Translations under genes and position numbers: made by a program
Part shown: positions 2,852 to 52,690 of the stretch, one piece after another
How the letters are laid out: every line of letters begins with the position of its first letter
Position numbering within the stretch: position 1 is the stretch's first letter
Assembly (NCBI GenBank): GCA_044892525.1
Contig: JBJFYX010000144.1
Location: 62,001-126,000, forward strand
From: Schmidtea polychroa
Lineage: Eukaryota
Reading direction: 5' to 3'
Length of the DNA stretch: 64,000 nt
Notes under the pieces: model-generated
Databases searched by the model: none
Told to the model about the DNA's origin: nothing
What the model saw: the letters and a program-made list of their open reading frames with translations, nothing else

Positions 2852-4773
2852 GTTATAAAAATTTTCAAACAAGTAAATTATATGATAATCCCTAATATTA
2901 TGTCCCTTGTTTAACATTTAATTTATGATGCTAACAAGAAATCATTTTAATAAATGAAAATATTTGTTTGTTGAATAATAAATAAATTTATGTAATTAAT
3001 TTTCTGATAAGTAAAGCCTCCGTAAATTTCAGATCTGAATTATTTCGCTATATTTTTTCACTTAACATGATACAAACTTCTTTATAACGAAATGTAGGAG
3101 CATTTTGCACTTAGAACAGTTAGAAATGTAGCAATAACCCAACTTCAATTTGTAATTATTTTAAATTGAATAAAATTACATATTTCTGTTATAATATCAA
3201 AATATTGTTTAATATTAGTAGAGAATATTTCATATTTTGATTGACTTCGTGTATGTTTTGACATTAGGGAAATTTAGGGAAATTCATCCTATCCAAAAGT
3301 GACAATTTAATGAATGGTATAAATAAAAAGTACTTCCAACGCAACTTAAATAAATACAATATTGCAGGGATTGTATAAATTAATGGAAAATGTATAGAGA
3401 ATTTTGTACAAAACAAAAAATGTAAAAATCAATATTTTTTGAGGGAAATGCAGGAGGCAAATGAAAAGACAAAATGAATATAATAATTTCAAATCGATAG
3501 TGGGTCCTTAGTAAAGGTTATATCAAAAATACAAAATAATTAATTAATTAGTTGATATAACAAACAGGCAAAGAGTTAGATGATTTTAGTCAGATAATGC
3601 AATTTAATAAATGCTTGATCCAGAGAGAACCTTATCAAAGGAGGGATAAAATACAGTTAAATCCCAGCAAATTTAAAGGAAGTTAATAATTACAAATTTA
3701 TTAAAAGTATGTATTGAGAATGTATTAAAAGGAGAGTTGTAAAGCGCATCAATTTTGAAATAAAAGGTTGGTGGTGGAGTTACCTACGATAAAGAGGAAA
3801 ATGCAATGTTCTATGTTTTACATGTTATTTGTTATAAAAAAAGAAAAGTCAAAATTCTCTCCTCACAACAATAGTATATGAAAATTATAACAGTATAAGC
3901 TATTATATTTAATGAAAATGGAAAGCCTTCTATGTACCATGTTAAGTGCTACAATGAAAATGACTTTTTCAATCTGAATGATCTCTGTCGGTAATACAAT
4001 TGCTTTCTTTTTCTCTAATTTCATTTTTATTAAAACAAATTATCATTTGTACCCAGAATAAAAATATTATAAAATGAACATTTTCAGAAGTTCTTTTCTT
4101 CATGACTTTCAAATGTCTGGAAAGACCTTTTTAATCTTTATATTAATGTTTCTTGGCATGAAATGAACTCTTTGTTTAAACAAAATAATAACAATTCAAT
4201 TAAGATCGAAAAAATATATATACATACTTAATAAAGTTCTTTGTCCAATGACAATTCACAGTCCCACATAAATATCATTAATTAAAACAAATAAAATTAT
4301 TTTAATTATGAAAATATTTCAAAAAAGCGTCAATTAGATATCCAGCATAAGATACTTATCTCATCAACTTAATTAAAACAAATCTTTTCAGACGAAATTC
4401 TTATAGAAAATTGAAAACTTTTACTAATTAAGTATTTATTACAGAATTTTGCTGTAACTTAATTCTCAACAACCGTTAAAAAAATAACAATTTATCGTAA
4501 CCAAAAACTTTCTTTAAAACGACAACTATAATTGTTTTAATAGAAATAATTTATAAACTGTTNNNNNNNNNNNNNNNNNNNNNNNNNNNNNNNNNNNNNN
4601 NNNNNNNNNNNNNNNNNNNNNNNNNNNNNNNNNNNNNNNNNNNNNNNNNNNNNNNNNNNNNNNNNNNNNNNNNNNNNNNNNNNNNNNNNNNNNNNNNNNN
4701 NNNNNNNNNNNNNNNNNNNNNNNNNNNNNNNNNNNNNNNNNNNNNNNNNNNNNNATACCCAGTGCAAACCCCA

Positions 4774-10718: not shown

Positions 10719-12214
10719 TTATTCAATTCTGCACCTGAGCAGCAATTTATCACTTTTGGCTGCTAATTTATTGATTGAGTAATCACCAAAATAAATCCAA
10801 ATTGGAATATTTCTGTCATTTGACGGTTTCCTCCATCCATTACGCTTGCTCATAAATGTCATTGGCTTGCTCATAAATGTCATTGACTTGCTCATAAATG
10901 TCATTGACTTGCTCATATAAATGCTGCCATTTGCTGGATCGATCACATCGATTGTCACCAATTGTTTGAACGGCCAATCCAATTGCTCATCATTTACCCC
11001 ACGCATGAAACAGAAACCAGCTGAAATACACAAATTACCCCAAATCCACACCGCCAAGCACATTTTGTAACCGATTGGCCCGGAATAAAATGCCTCGCTG
11101 TAAATCGATTCATCTTCCTTTTGTTGTGATAATTTATCGATTTGCCATTCAAAAAATCCATAATTTATATATTTTTTATTTGGTAATTTTCTTTTAATGG
11201 GCCGAATATCATTGGCGCATTTCGCCATTTCAAGCTGCAACTGAATCTCAAATTCAAACATTTCAGTAAATCAATAAATCACCTTTTCATTCTTCTGTTG
11301 CAGCTGCTGGTCGCATTTCTCTTTCATTTCATCAATTTGCTGTTGATATCTTGATTCAATAACCTCAATTTGCTGTCTGATCTGCTTTGCATCAATGAAA
11401 ATTCAATAACAAATCAAATCAATAATCAAACTTGATTGATTGATCCAATATTTGTCTCCATCTCCATTCTCAATGAGCGATTCTCATTCTTCACTGCAAC
11501 CATTTCCTCATTCAATTCTTCTATTTCCTCTCTGTTCTCCACCTCTTTCCTTTCAATATTGCACAATTTCACCTACAATCATAAATATCAATTAAATCAA
11601 TTACAAATAAAATATACATTGATATTATCAAATTGTTGTTTGAATTGCGTCATTTCTCCTTTCAATTCGATAATTTCGTTACGCAATTTCATATTCTCAT
11701 CTCTCATTGCTTGCATCTCATTGCATAAATTACTGATCTGATCAATCAATAATTTGCTGTGGCCTTCATTGTTCTCATTGAGATGGGCTTTCAATTTGTC
11801 TTTTACCACCTCATTCATTTCACATCCAATTCTATTGAATGGGCATCTGATTGGCTGCTTGTTGCATGTTCTCATATGGCTCTCCATCATGCACAACTCG
11901 GTTTTGAATTCACAATTTTGCATTGGACATTTTACAATAACTTCAGATATTTTTAAATTCACTGAATGATCCACAGAAACATCTTTAGTGAAAAGAATCG
12001 TTAGAACTTCACAATATTTTGCTGCTCCTGGACAGAATTTATCTTTTCCTTCCAAATAATGCTCAATGCAATCAGAACAAAAGTGACACCCGCAAGGAGC
12101 TTGGCAAGCTTTTATCATTAAACATTTGCAAATTCTGCACATCAAATCATTGCTGATTTCATTATCAAATTCAAATTTATTTCTCTTCATCATTTCCCAT
12201 ACGCTTGAAAACAT
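10719..12214 (-). CDS. Host TRAF-family protein (RING, TRAF zinc fingers, coiled coil, MATH); 4 exons, about 451 aa
   Basis: Predicted exons 12214-11618, 11572-11432, 11384-11283 and 11234-10719, joined in frame by GT-AG introns of 45, 47 and about 48 nt (alternative in-frame acceptors exist for intron 3). RING CRICKCLMIKACQAPCGCHFCSDC; MATH FEWQID..YSEAFYSGPIGYKMCL..FMRGVNDEQLDWPF. Confidence 0.85.
10848..10917 (-). repeat. 21-bp in-frame tandem repeat (MSKSMTF x about 3.3) inside the TRAF MATH exon
   Basis: gctcataaatgtcattgactt units seen directly. Confidence 0.9.
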
Positions 12215-15200
12215 TTTATCTAAAATAAACAAAATTTTCAACATTTTACAATTTTCACAAATTATACTTATTATATTAATTATTTCTGACGTTTACAATT
12301 TCAATATTTATAATTTGTATTTTAATGTAGATAAACAAACAATTTATAAATATTGTATTTTAGCTTTGAGTGTAATTCGAAATTTTATTAATGTTAATTT
12401 TCATTGTTTTTTTATTTTAAATCTTACAAAATTATTTAAATTAAAATTTGATAACAAAAAGTAAAATTTTGATGGAAATTTAAATAACTTTTTTAAAGAG
12501 AAAATCAAAATTAAAAATAGGTCAAAATATAAAAATTAATATTTTTCATAAAAATTTAAAAAATTTTATCTAAATTTAGAATTTATTTGAACAGATTAGA
12601 AAGAAATTCAAAATCATCAGAGCAAAAATAGAAATTTAACAAAAAATCAATATTTTTAATTCAAATACTTTTTAACAAAATAACAAAAAATTTTCATTCA
12701 ATTTTTAAAAAAAATGATATGAATAAAATTTTACTCTGTAACGCTAAGCAGGTTAATAATGTATTCAGGAATTGTGGGGTTTTAGCCTTTGATCTAATGA
12801 TCTCGTTATGGTTATAAATATTGGGAATGATCCACAATTGGATAAGGATATTTCAATGATCGAAAAGTTAGAATAGAGTAAAATAAATAAATCAATAAAC
12901 CTAATATGTGAAAATGTTAAAAGTCGAAATATTTTGTCAGACTCGAATGTTTCAAATCAATATTTGTGAAAATAAATAAATTATTAAAACATTCATAAAT
13001 CATAATTATAAATAATAATTATTTCCTCTTAATTTTGAAATTTCTATATTTAAAATGTTTTTATAGATAAACAGATATTTTATAAATATTGGTTTTTTAA
13101 TGTTAATTTTTCAGTGTTTTTCGAATTTATTTGTAACTTAATTTCCAAAATTTTGTAAAAAAATAACATTAATATTTTTTTTTAAATCCAAGAAAATTAT
13201 TTAAATCAATATTGTTATTGAAAATGTTTTTGATAAGAATTTTTTAATAGCAAATTTTTAAAAAGATTTTGACTACAAAATGAAATGTGCCCAAATGTCA
13301 TTTATAAGTTAAGTAAACAATCCAACAAACCATAATTAATAACCACCAGAATCTAAGAGATCAATTAAAGAAAAACACGAGATTCATTCATGCGCATCCA
13401 ACAGTAAGGATTTTATTTATGGATTTTATATTTATGTTTGGTAAATCGATATGCAAATTTCTTTAATTTTTACATTTTACTTCCTTGAATTCATACAATT
13501 AATAATTTTCACTAGAGCAGGTCACAGGCATTGAGAGAAGTGAAACATTTAGGTTACGAAACGAACTCATATCATGACCAAAAATTCCGAATTTTGTTTT
13601 TTAATGATATAAAAATGAAACTAAAATTTAGTTTTGAATTTCAGAGTGAGTTGAGATAGAATCGTATGACACTATGAAACCCAGGAATTGTTCACTGAGA
13701 CGCAGAAAATATATGCCAAGAAAGAGTTTAGACTAGAAGAGAGTGAGTTAGATATTGATCGTGAATATAGACGAATGATATTTGGAGGCAGCGGCGTTAA
13801 CATCAATCAGGAATGAGTGGTGCAACTACTGTGATAGCTGATATAGCCGTGCTGTGGGGCCCGACCGACCATAAAAAACAAAAATCATGACAAGTTTAGC
13901 ACGTGCAGCCAGTCAGAAGGACGTGATGAGATGCAATAAATTTCTAGTTACGAAATTAACATTATTGACATTACAAACGAAATTCGATTGTTGTTTAGCT
14001 GTTCTTCATAATATATTATGAATATGTTCTTACTGTACATCCTGTTTTGTGCGTAACATGAAGTCAATTGTTTATTTGGTAAATGCCTGTTATACGATGT
14101 TTTAAATTAATTAAATTAAAAACTCATTAAAATGTTTAAAAGTGCACGCTTCAATTTTCTGTTGTTGTTTTATTATAGGTTGATTAGAATTATTTAGTTT
14201 ACTAGAAACCTTATTTATTGGGCAAATCATTTCCTGAAACCAGTAAAACCCAATTATCAGCCCAATTCACAATAAGTAGAACATCATTTATAACATTAAT
14301 TAAAAATAGAATCATTGAAAGGAACATTGGAATTATCTGATGCATTATCAAAATCAATCCAATGGTAAATTTCATTCTCAACCGAAGCAGGCATCGAAAT
14401 TTCTGCTTTTCATTTGATGTATTTCGCGCTTGAAACTTCGGATTTCGTTTTGGCTGGGCAACAACTTGACCAAGCGGGAATTTTCATTTAAATCATGTTC
14501 AATATTTAAATATTTGAATATTCAAACAAATAAAACAGCTGTTATAGAAAATAGAACATATTTGCTAATCAATCACGCGTTTCTCTTTATTAATTATAAC
14601 AAAGCTGCAATTCATACCGCACTGATATCATTGATCAAGACGGGGAGCGGCAGTAATGGACCCGCAGAGAGCATGATGGGGCGAGTAGGTGTAAGACAGC
14701 AGCTCACCTCCCTCCTTGCTCCCAATGACAATATACAGCACCAACATGGCAGCTGTCATGGTTACATTGATTAGATTCATGACATTTGGATAAGTTTTAT
14801 TTAGTTATATTTATCTTGCTTTTTTAATTGGCTAAGAAATAAATTAAAGTTTATAACAATGATAAATTTGATATTTCTCCTGATTAAAAATAAATATGAG
14901 ATTAGAATAACTTATCTAGTTATTCGGATATAGTCAGATCTGCTGCTGGTGCTCAGGCAATGAAATCAATATCGCTGGAGTTTCAAGTTCATTTAAACAA
15001 GAATTAAGTGCAGCATGGGTTCAATGGGTAAATTTCGCCAGGACGTGACGCGCTACACAGCGAGGTTTTGGTTAGGAAGCGCAGAAGGCTCGAGTGGAGG
15101 AGCAAGGAATCATTCGTGATCGCAAGATCACGATCCCAGAGCAGACACAGCAGGTTATCGAGTTGCGTCGGTGGATCCACACGGGCACAGGAGTTGGTCG

Positions 15201-16334: not shown

Positions 16335-19300
16335 CAGGGGCCTGCCGAAGTGACTTTTTTGCCGAAGTCCGAAGTCGAATCAAATGTCTGGTGCGCGAAA
16401 ATAATTTACGGACCTGTACCTACTGCAATGACCTACGGCGATTCAAGACGCATATTATACCAAGAAAGGAATCAACGCTAACCAAAATTATAATAAATTG
16501 TAATAACTACCTTTTATTATCAACAGTTATTTAAAAAATGTAACATTATTGATAATTTTGATATTATTTTTATTAATAATTAATAAAATGAATCATATCA
16601 ATAAAACTAAAAAAATTATACAATGGGTGATAATACAAGATATTGAGAAGTGTTCATTTTGTTGTCTTTTGAAACATGGATGTAAATTATATAACATAGA
16701 TCTGTTAGCAACAAGCAAAGTAACGTGAAACGAAAAAATAAAAAAATACATGTGTTTATATAAATATATACATCTTGTCCGATGAGTTAATAGAATTCAT
16801 TAGTTTATTAGTAGTCAAAACGGACCACATCGAGATTTTTCATTAAAAATAGAAGCATCTCAGTTTTTGCTGGTGTTAACTTTGATCGACGGTCATCGCA
16901 TATAAGACCAGCCAAACTGAAGGTTCTTTCACTATCCACGCTGGAAGGAGGAGAAGCACAGAATTGTTTGGCGACCAGTGCAAGTTGAGGATATGTGTAT
17001 TGCCTTGATTTCCAATATTCTATTGGATCTTTTGGAGGTGAGTGTCGTTGGTTGCACGCTTCCGTTAAATATGCATCGAGCTGTTGTTGGAGATTACCGG
17101 AATCTGTAAAGTTGGATTGTGTAGCTCCAAGCATGTCGTCGTAGTAGCTATCCAAAGCAGATGTGGCTGATGAAGATGATGTGGAAGGTGTTGGGCCTGC
17201 TGGCACTTCATCACGCGAGTTGTCCGTCGACGATACAGCATTCATTGCATTCGCGTTAAAGAGACGAAGCTTGTACACTAGATCCAAAGCAGTAGATATT
17301 TTCAACGTTAGCATACCTGCGGCTGAGATCCGCAAGCATTTCAGCACGCATTGTTTGAATGCAGAGGTCGTCACCCTCCTTTGCTGGTCTCGTCAAAACT
17401 GCCTGAAGTACACGCACACTTGGAATAATCATTCCACTTGTTGCAGTTGACAAACTAGCATTCCGCGTTTCCTCTTCAAATGGACGCAATGTCGACACGA
17501 CCCTTTCGATTAATTTCCACTGATTGTTTGTCAGATTGGTGACTTCGTTGTCTTGGAGATAGAGAGCTATTGCTTTTCTCTGTTCGATCAAACGTTCCAA
17601 CATATAAAACGTGGAGTTCCTCCTTGTCTGTACATCTTGTATCAGGCGGTGGACGGGATATGGGTTTCCGGCAGCATCCGGCTGAAAAGAATTTTGAATC
17701 TCTTCCAGTCGATCATTGGCTAATGGTGAATGCCGGAAGTGGGTTACAATGTTGCGGGAAGCTGCAACTGCATCAATGACAGCCTTTTGCGTCTTCTTTA
17801 ATCCTGCACCCAACTAACTGAATCGTGTGTATGTAGCAGCCTAGATCTGATAAGCCTGCAACACTAGCGGCCTTCACCATGCTTGACCCGTTATCGCGAA
17901 CGAAGGTTCCACGTCTGCCTGCATCAATGTCCCATTCATTCAACAATTCCAATATGGTATCTCCAATCAGCTTACCGGTGTGATGTCCGTTGATTCCTCG
18001 AAGTGCCAGCACCACAAATTTGCGTTCCCAATTGTTGTCGATCCAGTGTGCTGTCAAAGAGAGGAATCCATTTAGGCTGTTGGTGGTTGTCCACACATCA
18101 CTCGTGAAGCACAGAAGTTTAGCATCTCCGATGAGATTCTTGACTTTCGACTTCACTGCAGCAAACATGTCCGGTATGATTGTTCTTGAGAAATAAGTCT
18201 CGTCTGGAATGACGTATCTGGGCACCAATTGATGCAGAACACGTTGGAATCCTTCGTCACTGACAATCGAAAATGGCTGACTATCCAAGGCTATCATCTC
18301 ACCAATTAGTTTCGTTATGAGGATCTGACGAGGATGGCCCGATTCAAATGGACGTGTACGTTCAATACATGCATCCAGAGTTTGTAGCTTTGGCTTCTTA
18401 GCTGCGGCATTGAGTTGATTTTCTTCCTCTTCAGCTTGTCGTTTCTTTGCAGAATCACACGCCTGTGAATATTCTTTGTACTTGTCCGGATGTTTAGAAC
18501 GTAGGTGGTTGATTAATGTTGTTGTTCCGTATGATCTTGGATCCTTGCCGCCACGTTTCATTTTCATTCTACATGTCCCACAGTTAGCAAAAGATTCATC
18601 CACAGCGTTGATTTCAAAGAAATTCCAAATTTTACTTCTCATAGCATTAGCCATATTTATTTAATTTCATTTATTTTTAATATTTAAATCTAATTTATTA
18701 ATTTTGTTGAAGAAATATATTTAAAATTTTCGATTTCAAATTTGATGGGCTTTTATATATATTATGTACACTGGGGAGGGGTATGGAGCTATGGAGATTT
18801 TCGCATGTGATGATGTGGAAAGTGAATCGGATGCTCAACTGGCAGTTCTGCTCAGTCTAATATTTTACCTAATGAATAAACACACAATTTTATGACAGAA
18901 AAATGACACAATTATTTCTATATAATTTTATAATAAGTATTATTGTCGATAAAGTCGATAGGTACGGTATACGAAAATCATCGTGCATGACATTGACATA
19001 TGCACTCGGTTGAACTGCATACACGCGCGTGGCATCTTGTGCTGCTTCCATCAGGCATGCAATAAGATTGAAGAGTCAACATACAGAGACGATAGATGAC
19101 ATAATAAATTTAAATGTGCTCAACATTAATTTAAATGTGTAGATTATGTGGTATTTCTCTCTTGACAGTAGTCAAGTCTAATAGTGCCCAAGCAATAAAT
19201 TTCGTACAGAGTAAAATTATTATTAGGCCTATTAGATTGCGATCGGTAATTGATTGTGGTATTACAGTAGCCTCAGCCTCGCAAGCCATGCCTATTCAAG

Positions 19301-21547: not shown

Positions 21548-22399
21548 GCGGGGGAGGGAGGGAGGGGGACAGATATAGGGCGGGTCCCTTCACCTGAGGC
21601 CCGTACAGCGGAGGCGGGTAACCCGTAAGGCTAGGAAACCCGGATGAGCGACATGGCGACCTGGAGGAGGACCCCACGCGGTAACCATGCTAGAATCTTT
21701 GTGTCACGAGGTGATCTGGATTCTAGCAACTGCTAGCAGGAAAGGCAAATTAAGCCAGCGCATTTTTGTGATAAAACAGCTTGTGGTTACAAATTAATTA
21801 ATAAAAAATTCAATAATTAAAATATTAAATCAAAAATCTAATTACCTAATTATTTAAATGTAATTCTTGAGTAATATTATTGAACATAGAAAATAAATTG
21901 TAGAGAATTTCAGTAAATATTTCCTTTATATTATATTTTAAATAAATAAGTTAACGCTTTGATTTCTCTTTTCTGGAAATCATCTATAACAGCGATTAAA
22001 CCAATAATAAGTATTTTACCATCAGCAAAATCTTCATCCGATCCTGATTCTATATCATCAAATAATTGAAATGCATCTTTATCTACAGGTTTAATCTCTC
22101 TTTTAGAAGGATCTCGTTTAGCTATGATTTTGAGAATATTATATCAATGATTTATTACTGATTGCATTTAAATATAAATTTATTTCTTCATCTTTATTAT
22201 TAGACGTTTAAAAGATTTCACCTAAAATTTAATATATTATGAATATTTAAACAATTTAAATCCAAGGATAATTTAATAAAATTAGAAAAAAGACTTTTAT
22301 AATAAAATTTACCAATTTCAAAATTTACAGATTTCTTATAATTTAATTTAAAGTATGGTGTGTATCACTCCACCAAATACATTCAATCTTAATTCCTGA

Positions 22400-22560
22400 G
22401 ATGCCTCTTTCAAACTTGCTTTAGCCAACAACTGCAACATTAAAACGTATGGTTCAAAGACATTACATTTCAAAATCGCAAACATAGAGCAAAACTTTCG
22501 AACGAACTTCGTTGTAGCAGATATAACTCACTCAATTCCTGGCGCCGATTTCGTAAGAAG
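22400..22560 (+). pseudogene. Gypsy protease fragment
   Basis: LALANNCNIKTYGSKTLH and, after a frameshift, FVVADITHSIPGADF, matching the C-terminal half of Ty3/Gypsy retropepsins. Confidence 0.5.
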
Positions 22561-22734
22561 CTTTTAATTTTTAATTGATAGTAAAAAGGCTAAAATCAAC
22601 AATGCGGGAGAAACGACAGAAACTGGAGAACCGACTGCCCCTGATAAAATTGATTATGACGATGCCATACTTAATAGAGAGATACAAGAAACTTTAACGA
22701 ATGAATCCAAAGGATGAAATAGAAAATATAGCTA

Positions 22735-23910
22735 AAACTAAAGATAGATGCTATGTCATGGATAAAGTTAAAGGGAGGATGGAAAATACTGTATGATGAG
22801 AACTTAGTTGAGAGTACTAAAAAAAGCATAAAAGACTATACCACTACGGAAGTAAATGATAGCGAAGAGACAGTGAAAAATCTAGTAAATCTAGACAACT
22901 ATGAAATCATGTCAAAAAGAGAGAAAATCGACAAAGACATTAGTAATAATAGTAATAAGGTTATTGTTAGAATTTGTTTAAAAGGAATAATGCGATCATA
23001 GCTTATGACTGTCAGAATTCTAAATGGGGACAGAAATATTCACTACTAGATGTGTAAAATTGCCTAGAGCCAAATCCAACAAAATTAATTGTGCCAGATA
23101 AGTCCTTTCGCTATTGGTAAACAAGATTATTGAGAATTGTTATGGAGGAAATTACAACTTTGATGTATTATTATTGAAAGAGCATTTCAAGAATGTTATG
23201 TATAGTGTTATACAGCATATGAGGATATTTTGCGATCGTTGGAAATACGTTCTCAACTATATTAGGAATATATTATACAGTACCATGATTGAAGATGATT
23301 TTTTCATCATTAGTTTCATTTAGACAATTGAGACAAGTTTTTGGTGACTAATATAAAATTATGGCATACTTGTGTTCATTCATAGCCAAATATCCAATCA
23401 CTACGTAGCTCGACAAAGTAATCAAACGGATGAAAAATCGAAGAGATTCGGGTAAAATAATGATCAATAATGAGAAAGATGACGACCCAAACAGATCAGA
23501 AAATATTGAACAGCCACAAATAGTCAAAGAGAACAATTGAGAGAATTGGGAAATAATATTGAAATTATAATCCCATACGAAATGGTAATTGTCATTGTGC
23601 TCCAAAGATAATTTGTTGATGTTACGGATTAGGGCTTGACTATATATTAGAAGGGTTCAATGAAGCAAGGCCAAAACTGAAAATAGTGATAAATAATATA
23701 ATAATAAATGCACTGAGCGATACAGGGAAGCAGCTTCTTTGATTCGTGTAGATCAGTTATCGGAAAATCAAAAGAAAACAATTTTGAGTACGAGAGATAG
23801 AGTAATTTCATCATCATCACATTTTACACCATTAAAAGGCGACATAGAATTAACAGTCCACTTCTCAGGTCGTGGAAGAACATGTTTTCAAGGTAGTAGC
23901 AGAATATAAA
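22735..23910 (+). pseudogene. Decayed relative of the giant element: BH2-like motif, Env N-terminus, aspartic protease
   Basis: SWIKLKGGW (22756-22782); IAYDCQNSKWGQKYSLLDV*NCLEPNPTKL (from 22998); LKIVINNIIINALSDTG..LKGDIELTVHF (about 23677-23870). Stops and frameshifts throughout. Confidence 0.75.
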
Positions 23911-26296
23911 TGTGTATATGTCAGCATTGAAGAAATAGCAAAATTTTAACTATAAGGTTATCTAATTCTACTTTGTTTTAACTTAAATTAATTGCACAAC
24001 CTAATCACGAGAAGCAGCTTTTCGCGTGTCTTACTCGTAGTTTTTAAATTCTAGAAGGGAACTATATTAGAAAACTTTAGATCGTCCTTTATGTAACCGA
24101 TAGCGCAAACTTCAGGAAACCCCTCCATCTTTAACCTAACCAAATATTTAATGCAGCATTCGTTTCTTATTCTGAGGACGGTTTGTACAACCGATTTCTT
24201 TGCTTTATTAAATCAGCTGCATTTTTATGTGTATTACATATATTATTACTGTTAAAACCAATATGAAAAACATATCAACGCTTCTATTACAATACGGTAT
24301 ATCATTAGTCACATTTAACAAATCGTTAACCTTTAAAAATGAATTCTTTAATAGAAAACGTTATGAATGTCCGAGAAAAAATTCAGGAATTTGGTAAATT
24401 TTAATTTATTTATTAATTAATTTATTAATTAATTTAGATAATATTAATGAAGACAATTTAAAATCGAAGATTAAAGGAAATTTGAAAAGAAAAAGTAAAC
24501 AAAATTTTTAATTTATTGATTTAATTAATTAATAATTTAGGTAATACGAATAAATGTGTCAATAAATCGAAATGAAAATTTTCAATGTAAGTATTGATTA
24601 CTTTTTATAATTTAAAAGAAATTAAATTAGATACTTCTTCTTTTGAATCCTAGGACGGCTTAGATCTAGTTGTAAATTTTAAAAACTTATTCTATTAAGT
24701 TTTGGAAAACCTTTCAAAGACAAGTTTCTAAATCATTATAGATTTCTTGAATTATATTTATAAATTCATCTTCAATTTGAGGAATAACTTGATTTAATTT
24801 ATACAAAACATATAAACACAAAACTCCAAATATTTTAGTGTTGTCAGGTTGAACTTGTAGAGTATTCCAAGTGTATTCTTCTCCTAAATATTCCTCGACT
24901 TCTTTTGTTGGTTTAATTCCATAAGGATCAAAATATATATGTGTAAATATTCTTAGAAAATTATTGAAAAAAATTATTTAGTCAAATGCATTACAAAGTC
25001 ATCTAAAATTAAACCTATTACTTGATTATTAACCTAACAGTCATTAAAAATTAATTTTTATTTAAAATTTAAAAAATTTAGCAAATTATCAAGAAATTCA
25101 ATTAAAATCATCATTAAAACTTTAAATTTTTAATCAATCAAAATGAAATTCTTAGAAAATATATGAAAAAAATATTTAGTCAAATTCAATTACATTACAA
25201 AGTCATATCCTATCACTTGATTATTAACCTAACTGTCATTAAAAATAATTTTTTTTTAAATTAAAAAAACCAATCAATAAAAATGCATCCAATTATCAAG
25301 AAATTAATTAAATTTATCTTAGAACTAACTATAAATTTTTAAATTTTCATTTAATCCACATGAAATTAACAAAAATGTTAAATATTTCCTAAAACCATCA
25401 ACTTAAAAAAAATTGCTATTGAATGCCTTAGACATCAAAATTTATCTAAATAATCTTTCAAATTAATTCATTAAAATTGAAGAAAACACGCTCTATTTTG
25501 TCATTAAATTCAATTAAAATTAAATAAATCAAAATAAGAACTTTGATAAAAAATATTATTCTAAAATGGTAAGAATTAACACTGTAGTGTTAAATGGAAA
25601 GGTAATTATTCTTTAAATCTAATTAACTTTGTCATAATTTCTTTAATTATTACTACCAATTCTCATCATCTTTCAAAATTTATTACTTAATTTTAAATTG
25701 CATCATTTAATTTACTTCATTTAAAATTTTTGCATTTAATTTAGCAAATATAGCATTTAATTACTTTTTTTTTAAATATATCTCTTATTATTATTTCATA
25801 AAAAATCTATTTAAATTTATCATTGAAAATTATTTCAAAAAAATTTGCATCTCAAATTGTCAATTCTCATCGTTGATAGTTTTTCAAAATATCTGGCAAT
25901 AAATTATTACTGTAATTTTCAAATTTTTACTTAATTTAAAAGTATTACTATAATTTAAAAATTTTAATTTTAATTTAATTCTATTTAATTTAATTTACTT
26001 AATTTTAAAAATTGGAACTTAAATTACTAATTTGAACCCTTAATTTACTTTAATTTAAAATTTTAGACTTTATTTTAGAAATTAATTTAAAATTTTAGAC
26101 CATAATTTACCTATTTATCAATAATTTACTTTAGTTCAATTTTAGATCCTTGATTAATTCAATTTAAAAATATAGACCATAATTTACTTTAATTTAAAAT
26201 TTAACCATCAATTTACTTAATTGAAAATTTTAGACCATAATTTTCATGTAAAATTGTCATTGAAAAAATTTTCAATTCTCAGGCGCTGTTTAGTAG

Positions 26297-33614: not shown

Positions 33615-35003
33615 CTACTCAGTCCTACTCTTCCCGTCTCGCCTCACCGCTATTTTTATGTATATAGTGTCGTTTCTCGTCATGTCTTCTGCTTTCCGCT
33701 GTAGGATGAAATTCGGTGCTCCAGTTGCTGGTCCTTCTTCTTCCAAGGGCCTTTGGTAACATACGAGGTTTCCCGCTGTATGGAAACTCTGTTCATGTAT
33801 ACTTTGATAGTTCATCATTACGAGGTCTATTTTTGCTTTGAATGACCATTCTATTAACTCGTCGTATAGCCCTTTGCACATCAAGAAGAATACTGAGAAA
33901 TGCGTTCCGTATGCACTTCCATCCCCATTGGGGTATGCTTTCATTTTCATTTTATACCCGTTTTTCCATGAGTAGAATGCTGGACTTAGTAATGTTGTAT
34001 CCTTTCCATTTCTCGCTCTCTGCATCTTCTCTTTTACTCCCGTTATTTTCCATATGTATGGAGCCGTGGGTATTAATTCGTTGAGGTTTAATTCGCTTAC
34101 TTTTTGATGTAGTTCTTTCACCATAATGTTGCTAGTTTCCACTAGATCTGTCTGTATCTTTGTACTTGTTCTCGCCTCTTCAAATGCTTCCTTTTCTTCC
34201 AATAGTTCTTTTACCAACGCTTTTAGCGAGACTATTTCTCTTTCTAAGTTTTCGGTTTTCCTTTCGTTTTCTTGTAATACTGTTGACCATATTTCCGCGT
34301 GTGTTGATACGTTTTCTGCTAGATGTTGGGGTAATTCCCCTCGGTGTAATTGTTTCTGACATCCCCATTTTCCTAGCACACACGTTATCTTTTTTCTTTC
34401 ACATTCTTTTAGATGTTGAGCGAGTTTTATTACTCCGGGTTTATCGCATTTGTTGGGGCATTCTCCTCTGAATTCTGCGCACACTTTCTTCTCTTGTATG
34501 TTGTGATGTTGACTGATTAGTTTTTTCCAGGTGTCGGTTTCTCCGCAATACTCACATTTCTCCAGTCTTTCTTCGCATCGACTTTGATGTTCTGCTTCTT
34601 CATTGACTTTAATCTCTTCTTGGCAACGTTTGCATTGACTGATTTTATACTCACATTGCTCCATATGTTGCCTCACTTCCCATATCACTCCTCGCCAATT
34701 ACATGGGGTGTTTTTACATCCTAGGTTTGCATTCAACATATCTTTTACAGCTGCTTTATCTTCGTTTGTATCTCCCAAACTTGTTATCATTGTTTCTTTG
34801 CATACTGGGCACCATTGTGGTCCCTTCTTTATTATCTCCTCTACACATTCTCTGCACATTCTGCATCCACATCTGGTTTGGTGAGGTTCTCTTAATAAGC
34901 TCTTGCATATTCCACACGTTACATGGTTGTGTATTCGAATTGTGGTGGACTTTCTGACTTGTTCAACAATTTCTTTGAATTCTTCTCGTTGTCGCTTATC
35001 CAT
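33615..35003 (-). CDS. Element-borne intronless TRAF (RING, TRAF zinc fingers, coiled coil, MATH)
   Basis: CGICKSLLREPHQTRCGCRMCRECV..CPVC; several TRAF zinc fingers; MATH YIWKITG..SPAFYSWKNGYKMKMKAYPNGDGSAYGTHFSVFF..KGLYDELIEWSF. Likely start MDKRQ at 35003. Confidence 0.93.
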   Translation of the reverse strand: MDKRQREEFKEIVEQVRKSTTIRIHNHVTCGICKSLLREPHQTRCGCRMCRECVEEIIKKGPQWCPVCKETMITSLGDTNEDKAAVKDMLNANLGCKNTPCNWRGVIWEVRQHMEQCEYKISQCKRCQEEIKVNEEAEHQSRCEERLEKCEYCGETDTWKKLISQHHNIQEKKVCAEFRGECPNKCDKPGVIKLAQHLKECERKKITCVLGKWGCQKQLHRGELPQHLAENVSTHAEIWSTVLQENERKTENLEREIVSLKALVKELLEEKEAFEEARTSTKIQTDLVETSNIMVKELHQKVSELNLNELIPTAPYIWKITGVKEKMQRARNGKDTTLLSPAFYSWKNGYKMKMKAYPNGDGSAYGTHFSVFFLMCKGLYDELIEWSFKAKIDLVMMNYQSIHEQSFHTAGNLVCYQRPLEEEGPATGAPNFILQRKAEDMTRNDTIYIKIAVRRDGKSRTE

Positions 35004-35092
35004 TTCTATAATTATATATATACATATATTCATTACTGGTACAGTTTCGTATTTTTATTTACAGTTATTTACATTGCTATTTTAGGTTATAT

Positions 35093-51772: not shown

Positions 51773-52252
51773 CTAACTGAAATAGATTGTGTGCTTCTCT
51801 TTTATTACACATGTGCACATAGAACAACGGATTAAACTGGCGGCGCATTCGTCACAATGGCTAAGGTGCCCACAAGGTAGAATCAGAGTTTTGACAGGTC
51901 GCATCTTGCAAATGTTACAAGTTCTCAAGGCCGCTGCTTTCTCTACTATTGATGTTCGTATCCGCTGAGACAGAGTTTTGACTTGTTCGCGTATCCTCAC
52001 ATATTCGATGTTCAGAGCGGGGTCGTCGAGTCGTTGCTGCATCCATTGGTAATGGGTAGACAAGTCGGTATCGGTATTTGTTGATCCTAATCTGTCGGTT
52101 AGAAAGTTTTGTTTGGATATCAGCGGTGCGTTGTGGCTTTGTTGTTCTAACAGTTCTATTTGTTTCAGTTTTTCCTTTAATGTTTTTATTGAATCATTTT
52201 CTATTTCGATGAACCGGCTTAGCTGTTGTAGATGTTGTCTAGCTTCCGACAT
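51773..52252 (-). CDS. Coiled-coil + C-terminal IAP/MDM2-type RING protein, 159 aa
   Basis: CNICKMRPVKTLILPCGHLSHCDECAASLIRCSMCTCVIKEKHTIYFS ending at the stop; no BIR domain. Confidence 0.85.
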   Translation of the reverse strand: MSEARQHLQQLSRFIEIENDSIKTLKEKLKQIELLEQQSHNAPLISKQNFLTDRLGSTNTDTDLSTHYQWMQQRLDDPALNIEYVRIREQVKTLSQRIRTSIVEKAAALRTCNICKMRPVKTLILPCGHLSHCDECAASLIRCSMCTCVIKEKHTIYFS

Positions 52253-52690
52253 ATCTAAATGAATGTGTTGTTATTATTTTGTTCCTGCTGGTATTAAAAT
52301 TAATATTATTATGTTTGTATTTAATATTCGTTGACTTTTATGCGTTAGTGTTTTAACTTTTGTATTTTGTTCGGTCTTTGAAATTCCCCTTTCATCTTTT
52401 CGCTTTAATCACTTACTTTCTTTCGTCCCCCCTTTTATTTTAACCAGTTAATATTAACTACAATAACTAATTCCCGTTTTCTTTTCTCATCATGCCTCAT
52501 CACATTCACTCCAACTCATTTAGGTTCGTTTCATTCACCACATGCTCTATTTCAAACTCAGACAGTTCGTATCATTTCATTGCACTATAATTCGTTTCGG
52601 CCCCGATTCCATTTCTATCATAATTAATTAGATTGTTATGCTAACACATCATACCACAGAAATAGACAATCAAATAAATCAATATTCAAT

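Follow-up and report, generated by a model that had tools for sequence, protein, structure and literature searches.

The window, a 64,000-nucleotide stretch of Schmidtea polychroa contig JBJFYX010000144.1, contains on its plus strand a decayed internal piece of an LTR retroelement resembling Smed_errantivirus_3, a type referred to here as family 2. Local alignments to 25 loci place this piece at 22,643–23,922 (1.28 kb, or ~1.3 kb), somewhat beyond the 22,735–23,910 given in an earlier note on this DNA, and no LTR, gag or reverse transcriptase (RT) is left within it. The fragment begins with the C-terminal half of a Bcl-2-like domain, from after BH1 through BH2 (22,643–22,800), which aligns to residues 159–188 and 197–244 of the family-2 protein P0002 and is interrupted by a 14-bp frameshifting deletion near 22,735. 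The remnant of a hydrophobic internal signal region follows (22,895–22,997; P0002 residues 246–279, with hydropathy assessed on residues 255–273), then the first ~34 codons of the Env ectodomain (IAYDC..., 22,998–23,099) up to a 1,375-bp deletion. Beyond this are the end of the ectodomain, the transmembrane helix and the cytoplasmic part, with stops and frameshifts (23,100–23,522; P0002 residues 773–913), and a retropepsin protease remnant with a DTG motif, its end missing (23,677–23,922; P0002 residues 935–1059, Pfam RVP matching P0002 residues 965–1062). The three strings quoted in the earlier note are all present on the plus strand in different frames, namely SWIKLKGGW (Trp codon at 22,759), IAYDCQNSKWGQKYSLLDV*NCLEPNPTKL (YDC at 23,004) and LKIVINNIIINALSDTG (23,677–23,727). 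These motifs are real, although the note passed over the surviving Env signal region and the Env transmembrane and cytoplasmic part (~23,100–23,520).

Dispersed repeats adjoin the fragment on both sides. The left one (22,295–22,649, plus strand, dispersed matches of 70–81%) is an unrelated decayed repeat whose C-terminal half looks protease-like in the L061 translation; it has no Pfam match, and the protease label was therefore assigned by eye. The right one (23,917–24,244) has matches of 73–84% on several contigs. A young Burro-like element of 30.6 kb, family 1, occupies 26,297–56,916 on the minus strand, 2,375 bp from the fragment, in line with the 2.4 kb noted before. It has 4,202-bp LTRs differing by 9 mismatches, a 4-bp target duplication and an empty site at locus L035, and its Pfam domains comprise gag, a weak Bcl-2 (E = 0.078), Monjiviricetes_fusion, protease, RT, RNase H, integrase, ankyrin, TRAF and RING. 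In the window copy the gag-to-pol frame of this element is split into 1,102, 359 and 3,304 codons; elsewhere it runs unbroken, at 4,730–4,810 codons. Its TRAF ORF lies at 33,615–35,054 and its RING ORF at 51,773–52,270.

Family 2 is still abundant in the genome. Two copies are 13.5 and 14.7 kb long from one LTR end to the other, with ~1.1-kb LTRs that differ within pairs at 4/989 and 5/1,068 positions, TG..CA ends and 4-bp target duplications in both. Two other copies were examined for their coding content, and both have one frame of 3,053 codons with the Pfam order zf-CCHC (residue 352), Bcl-2 (792–859), Monjiviricetes_fusion (912–1562), RVP (1616), RVT (1949), RNase H (2191) and integrase (2405). 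The order protease, RT, RNase H, integrase, together with gag, the TG..CA LTRs and the target duplication, identifies family 2 as a Ty3/gypsy LTR retroelement; of these features the window fragment retains the protease only. The Env matches PF24664 (E = 4.9e-89), which points to a class III, gB-like protein. A protein search with the Bcl-2/Env-start region gave at least 146 matches (144 of 2,107 candidates scored); among the matches listed most show 84–95% identity, with groups near 72% and 50%, and 12 of the at least 146 lie in frames of 3,051–3,090 codons, one of them flagged with a stop. A homologue search with the same region, restricted to longer proteins, returned one protein among 2,661 candidates. 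A weak SUMO-like match (E = 0.05) precedes the Bcl-2-like domain in L022 and L023. Two other copies, L012 and L015, share an Env deletion of their own, corresponding to residues ~510–765 of the neighbour.

The whole interval 22,643–23,922 aligns in order to P0002 (E = 2.8e-42 and 4.8e-54), which bears out the proposal that its parts are collinear remains of one element, and both of its DNA segments are 82–85% identical to young family-2 copies elsewhere in the genome. Very probably, what survives here is a defunct remnant, with an internal deletion, of a single old integration by a compact Ty3/gypsy LTR family. Young copies of that family encode in a single frame Gag, the Bcl-2-like domain, the class III-type Env, protease, RT, RNase H and integrase, and the family is likely the counterpart of Smed_errantivirus_3. 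A DNA search of the same genome with 22,560–23,960 yielded at least 42 matches (best 40 of 352 candidates scored); among the matches listed, five are the window’s own place and its duplicates, 35 cover the 3' segment (82–85%) and two the 5' segment (81%). Comparison with nine family-2 loci revealed no further pieces of the family in the window; the remaining matches were weak RT/integrase resemblance to the 30.6-kb element and short unrelated flank repeats.

A single deletion at 23,099/23,100, amounting to 1,375 bp relative to L022 and L050, removed ~459 of the 532 Env ectodomain residues, and most of Env is indeed gone, as had been noted. Trees were built for each DNA segment from the 25 loci (20 and 19 rows, loci covering <80% of a segment being left out). 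In both, the window copy pairs with an old broken copy, L028, outside the young clade (support 0.78 and 0.92), on terminal branches of 0.139 and 0.126; support for the window branch is modest in the segment A tree. Further copies of the fragment on contig C1 differ from it at 0, 0, 13 and 8 positions, the last covering the 3' part only, and lie inside longer duplicated blocks. One duplicate, L035, holds the fragment together with the empty site of the 30.6-kb element, so that the fragment is the older of the two and their 2.4-kb proximity is meaningless. After insertion, everything outside 1.28 kb was lost along with 1,375 bp of Env, segmental duplication came next, and the 30.6-kb neighbour arrived later. 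The fragment shows that family 2 predates the neighbouring insertion, and it bears out a gene order that was already published; otherwise it adds little. The window region, large element included, matches two places on C1 (6.49–7.20 Mb) at 99.9% identity, and the window’s contig (C144) may redundantly represent one of these places.

The Env-deleted form could also have been mobile itself, spreading by retrotransposition as a non-autonomous element, and other family-2 copies (L012, L015) do bear different Env deletions. However, the 61-mer spanning the deletion junction was found in 11 of 61 loci, all of them the window’s place or its segmental duplicates, and the window copy has no LTR, which makes such spread very improbable.

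Besides the large deletion, the window copy carries eight small frameshifts and eight in-frame stops. Changes unique to it are distributed over the three codon positions as 44/34/41 (chi-squared p = 0.51), compared with 13/4/32 on the reference branch, and synonymous versus nonsynonymous changes number 42/77 in the window and 32/17 on the reference branch (Fisher p = 6e-4), with the same outcome in all three triplets. Since changes are spread over codon positions and accompanied by stops and frameshifts, the copy has decayed neutrally, blind to codon position, and it encodes no protein of the family-2 kind. The description of a decayed, diverged relative was accurate, family 2 being distinct from the neighbouring element. 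Domestication or exonisation of the fragment, for instance as a gene for a Bcl-2-like or membrane protein held by selection, might be read from the survival of BH2 and the transmembrane part and from its presence at five or more places. This is very improbable, given the eight frameshifts, eight stops and codon-blind substitutions, the missing first half of the Bcl-2-like domain, and the fact that the five places are segmental duplicates.

The check proposed in the earlier note, a tBLASTn-type comparison with the neighbour’s 3,304-aa frame, succeeded in part. The Env start was significant (35.4 bits, E = 5e-5 regionally and 0.002 window-wide, with none of 100 triplet shuffles scoring above 25.4 bits). 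No HSP was obtained for the BH2 and protease motifs, and two pieces of the Env transmembrane region matched the neighbour’s polyprotein weakly but in order, at E = 0.049. From this comparison alone, the call made in the note would be suggestive but unproven. That the three motifs stem from unrelated insertions or chance, their collinearity only apparent, might seem in keeping with the unrelated repeats adjoining both ends and with a significance against family 1 limited to the Env start, but two contiguous DNA segments align in order to single family-2 copies at 82–87%, 1,375 bp apart in those copies, which refutes this reading and leaves it practically no probability.

Protein identity between the neighbour and family 2 is 54% for RT, 52% for RNase H and 53% for integrase, 36% for Env, 27% for protease and 25% for the Bcl-2-like domain. 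An origin of the fragment from the neighbouring element was ruled out, with 25–36% protein identity over the domains concerned and, across the fragment, no match at the DNA level. A functional link between the two was likewise rejected, as they lie on opposite strands and the element’s site is empty in L035. The earlier note’s proposal that Env-before-protease is a family-wide order holds, the order standing in unbroken family-2 frames and being common to two deep families. Because both deep families have it, an assembly error is impossible; misassembly was also ruled out by the recurrence of the fragment and its junction on contig C1. Several subfamilies exist, as proposed, with family 2 set against the Burro-like neighbour and six Schmidtea families listed in print (PMC13524379). 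What did not hold is that the fragment preserves the order independently: a decayed copy adds no independent evidence beyond family 2, and young family-2 copies show the order far better.

Both the order and the existence of several families were already in print in 2019 and 2026 (PMC6431247 and PMC13524379). GAG-ENV-POL elements have been described in Nematoda, Bryozoa and Platyhelminthes, where they are not monophyletic across phyla, and the six Schmidtea families are GAG-ENV-POL errantiviruses of the HSV/gB type, with pairwise Env identities of 27–64% among the rows compared (Chary and Hayashi, eLife 2026, PMC13524379). Family 2 resembles them in having an Env, apparently of class III type, between gag and pol. 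Its Env differs from that of Smed_errantivirus_3 at ~42 of 246 residues (~83% identical, counted by eye in one 246-residue ENV_HSV row), and family 2 is likely, on this sequence similarity, the counterpart of that element. The matched part of Env is deleted in the window copy, and the window’s link to Smed_errantivirus_3 therefore runs through family 2. The two differ in copy number, with 3 copies of Smed_errantivirus_3 in S. mediterranea (PMC13524379) versus at least 146 matches for family 2 here (144 candidates scored), and the window copy, unlike Smed_errantivirus_3, is a fossil. The neighbour’s Env looks closest to Smed_errantivirus rows 5 and 6 of the same paper, whose main text does not mention Bcl-2, apoptosis, a polyprotein or a single ORF, so that within the text searched the Bcl-2-like domain of this family has no description.

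A BCL2-like motif was reported in Burro-2, -3 and -4 of S. mediterranea, giant gypsy-like LTR retrotransposons (Burro/GYPSM1) that carry a SUMO-like domain ahead of BCL2 and an in-frame Env between BCL2 and the protease (PR), described as the first such case; a Burro-like element also occurs in D. tigrina and decaying Burro fragments in D. japonica (Arkhipova and Yushenova 2019, PMC6431247, which cites Grohme 2018 and Jurka 2007 for Burro/GYPSM1). Family 2 shares the order BCL2-like, Env, PR in one frame with Burro. However, Burro exceeds 30 kb (PMC6431247), whereas family 2 measures 13.5–14.7 kb, its LTRs ~1.1 kb and its frame ~3,050 aa, and the family-2 stretches compared contain neither a Pfam ankyrin match nor matches to the neighbour’s TRAF and RING ORFs. 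The neighbour fits Burro in size, ankyrin and TRAF, while family 2, by its length and the absence of a Pfam ankyrin match, does not fit the giant type with its multi-kb LTRs and ankyrin/TRAF/BIR cargo. Judged from literature listings, PMC6431247 alone was relevant to Bcl-2 in such elements, and the supplements of Grohme 2018 might cover family 2. As a small addition, the present analysis extends the Bcl-2-like domain to a compact family outside Burro, where it is under purifying selection and without the NWGR of BH1.

The family-2 domain alone matches PF00452 at E = 8e-7 with 29.9 bits, below the curated cut-off of 31.4, and that of the neighbour at E = 0.024. A 13-row family-2 profile found Bcl-xL in the PDB at E = 3e-4, and 59 of the 60 best rows were Bcl-xL/Bcl-2 constructs. 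A structural model built from 13 closely related rows (pLDDT 79.9, pTM 0.70) gave Foldseek matches of which all 40 listed were Bcl-2/Bcl-xL (best E = 8e-4), with TM-scores of only 0.48–0.60 and an rmsd of 4–6.5 Å for most rows. The model, together with the Pfam and PDB profile matches, supports a Bcl-2 fold for this domain. It shares the helical fold and BH2 with the Bcl-2 family (PF00452; Bcl-xL) and departs from it in the loss of NWGR, ~15% identity, the sub-cut-off Pfam score and its polyprotein setting.

Only the second half of the domain remains in the window copy. The BH2 motif WIxxxGGW is present in family 2, with its tryptophan in 17 of 20 aligned rows; of the other rows, one begins with a Trp codon before a gap, one has Ser and one is deleted. 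The tryptophan also occurs in the 50% sublineage, and the neighbour has His in its place. The BH1 sequence of family 2 is G[VI]N[RG]D[KR]V, that of Bcl-xL is GVNWGRI, and NWGR is absent from all 13 family-2 rows. A profile search of the protein library gave eight matches at E < 0.001, one of which, P0006, was dropped from the BH1 count (no Bcl-2/Env match, compositionally biased, likely spurious); none of the other seven has NWGR by eye, one retaining GR and one R. The Gly-Arg of BH1 is needed for BH3 binding. With NWGR lost, the BH2 tryptophan is silent on function, and an anti-apoptotic function is unproven. The tryptophan that the earlier note took to strengthen its Bcl-2 call is thus present, and the fold call holds, but it is an inherited family-2 trait. 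The domain lies directly ahead of the Env start in four of the eight library matches, and a distant relative, P0003, has the same order through the protease. In P0003, BH2 and Env are apparently followed by two or three protease-like repeats.

Values of dN/dS for the BH1–BH2 half were 0.05–0.13 in all four pairs (dS being almost saturated where the pair is distant), indicating purifying selection on this half in family 2. Some poxviral Bcl-2-fold proteins inhibit host innate signalling. By analogy, the Bcl-2-fold domain of flatworm-type GAG-ENV-POL elements might be an old selected module without the BH3-binding signature, a putative membrane-tethered inhibitor of host innate signalling delivered by the Env signal sequence and not a BH3 trap, though we regard this as rather unlikely. 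If the domain does influence death or immune signalling of the host, the persistence of envelope-bearing retroelements in stem-cell-rich animals would be explained.

The long family-2 frame has a hydrophobic stretch on either side of the Env ectodomain, at residues 906 and 1477. The one behind the Bcl-2-like domain would serve as an internal signal sending Env into the ER lumen, and the Env transmembrane helix as a stop-transfer sequence that returns the protease and Pol to the cytosol, where Gag and the Bcl-2-like domain would also remain. Signal peptidase and the element’s own protease would separate the chain, leaving the Bcl-2-like domain at a membrane, on its cytosolic side, where it would likely damp a host death or defence response in element-expressing cells. 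The window fragment performs none of these proposed steps.

Beyond the integrase, the family-2 frame has a further hydrophobic stretch close to its C-terminus (L062:330–9488, residue ~2990). Behind the polyprotein, a further long ORF is present at L022:1–2271 (minus strand, at least 757 aa) and L021:7780–9345 (plus strand), with no Pfam match. Elsewhere in the window, 10,719–12,292 (minus strand) holds a TRAF-like gene outside the large element, ~25% identical to the element’s TRAF, and 16,808–18,660 (minus strand) holds frameshifted ORFs that by eye resemble a hAT transposase with a BED finger.
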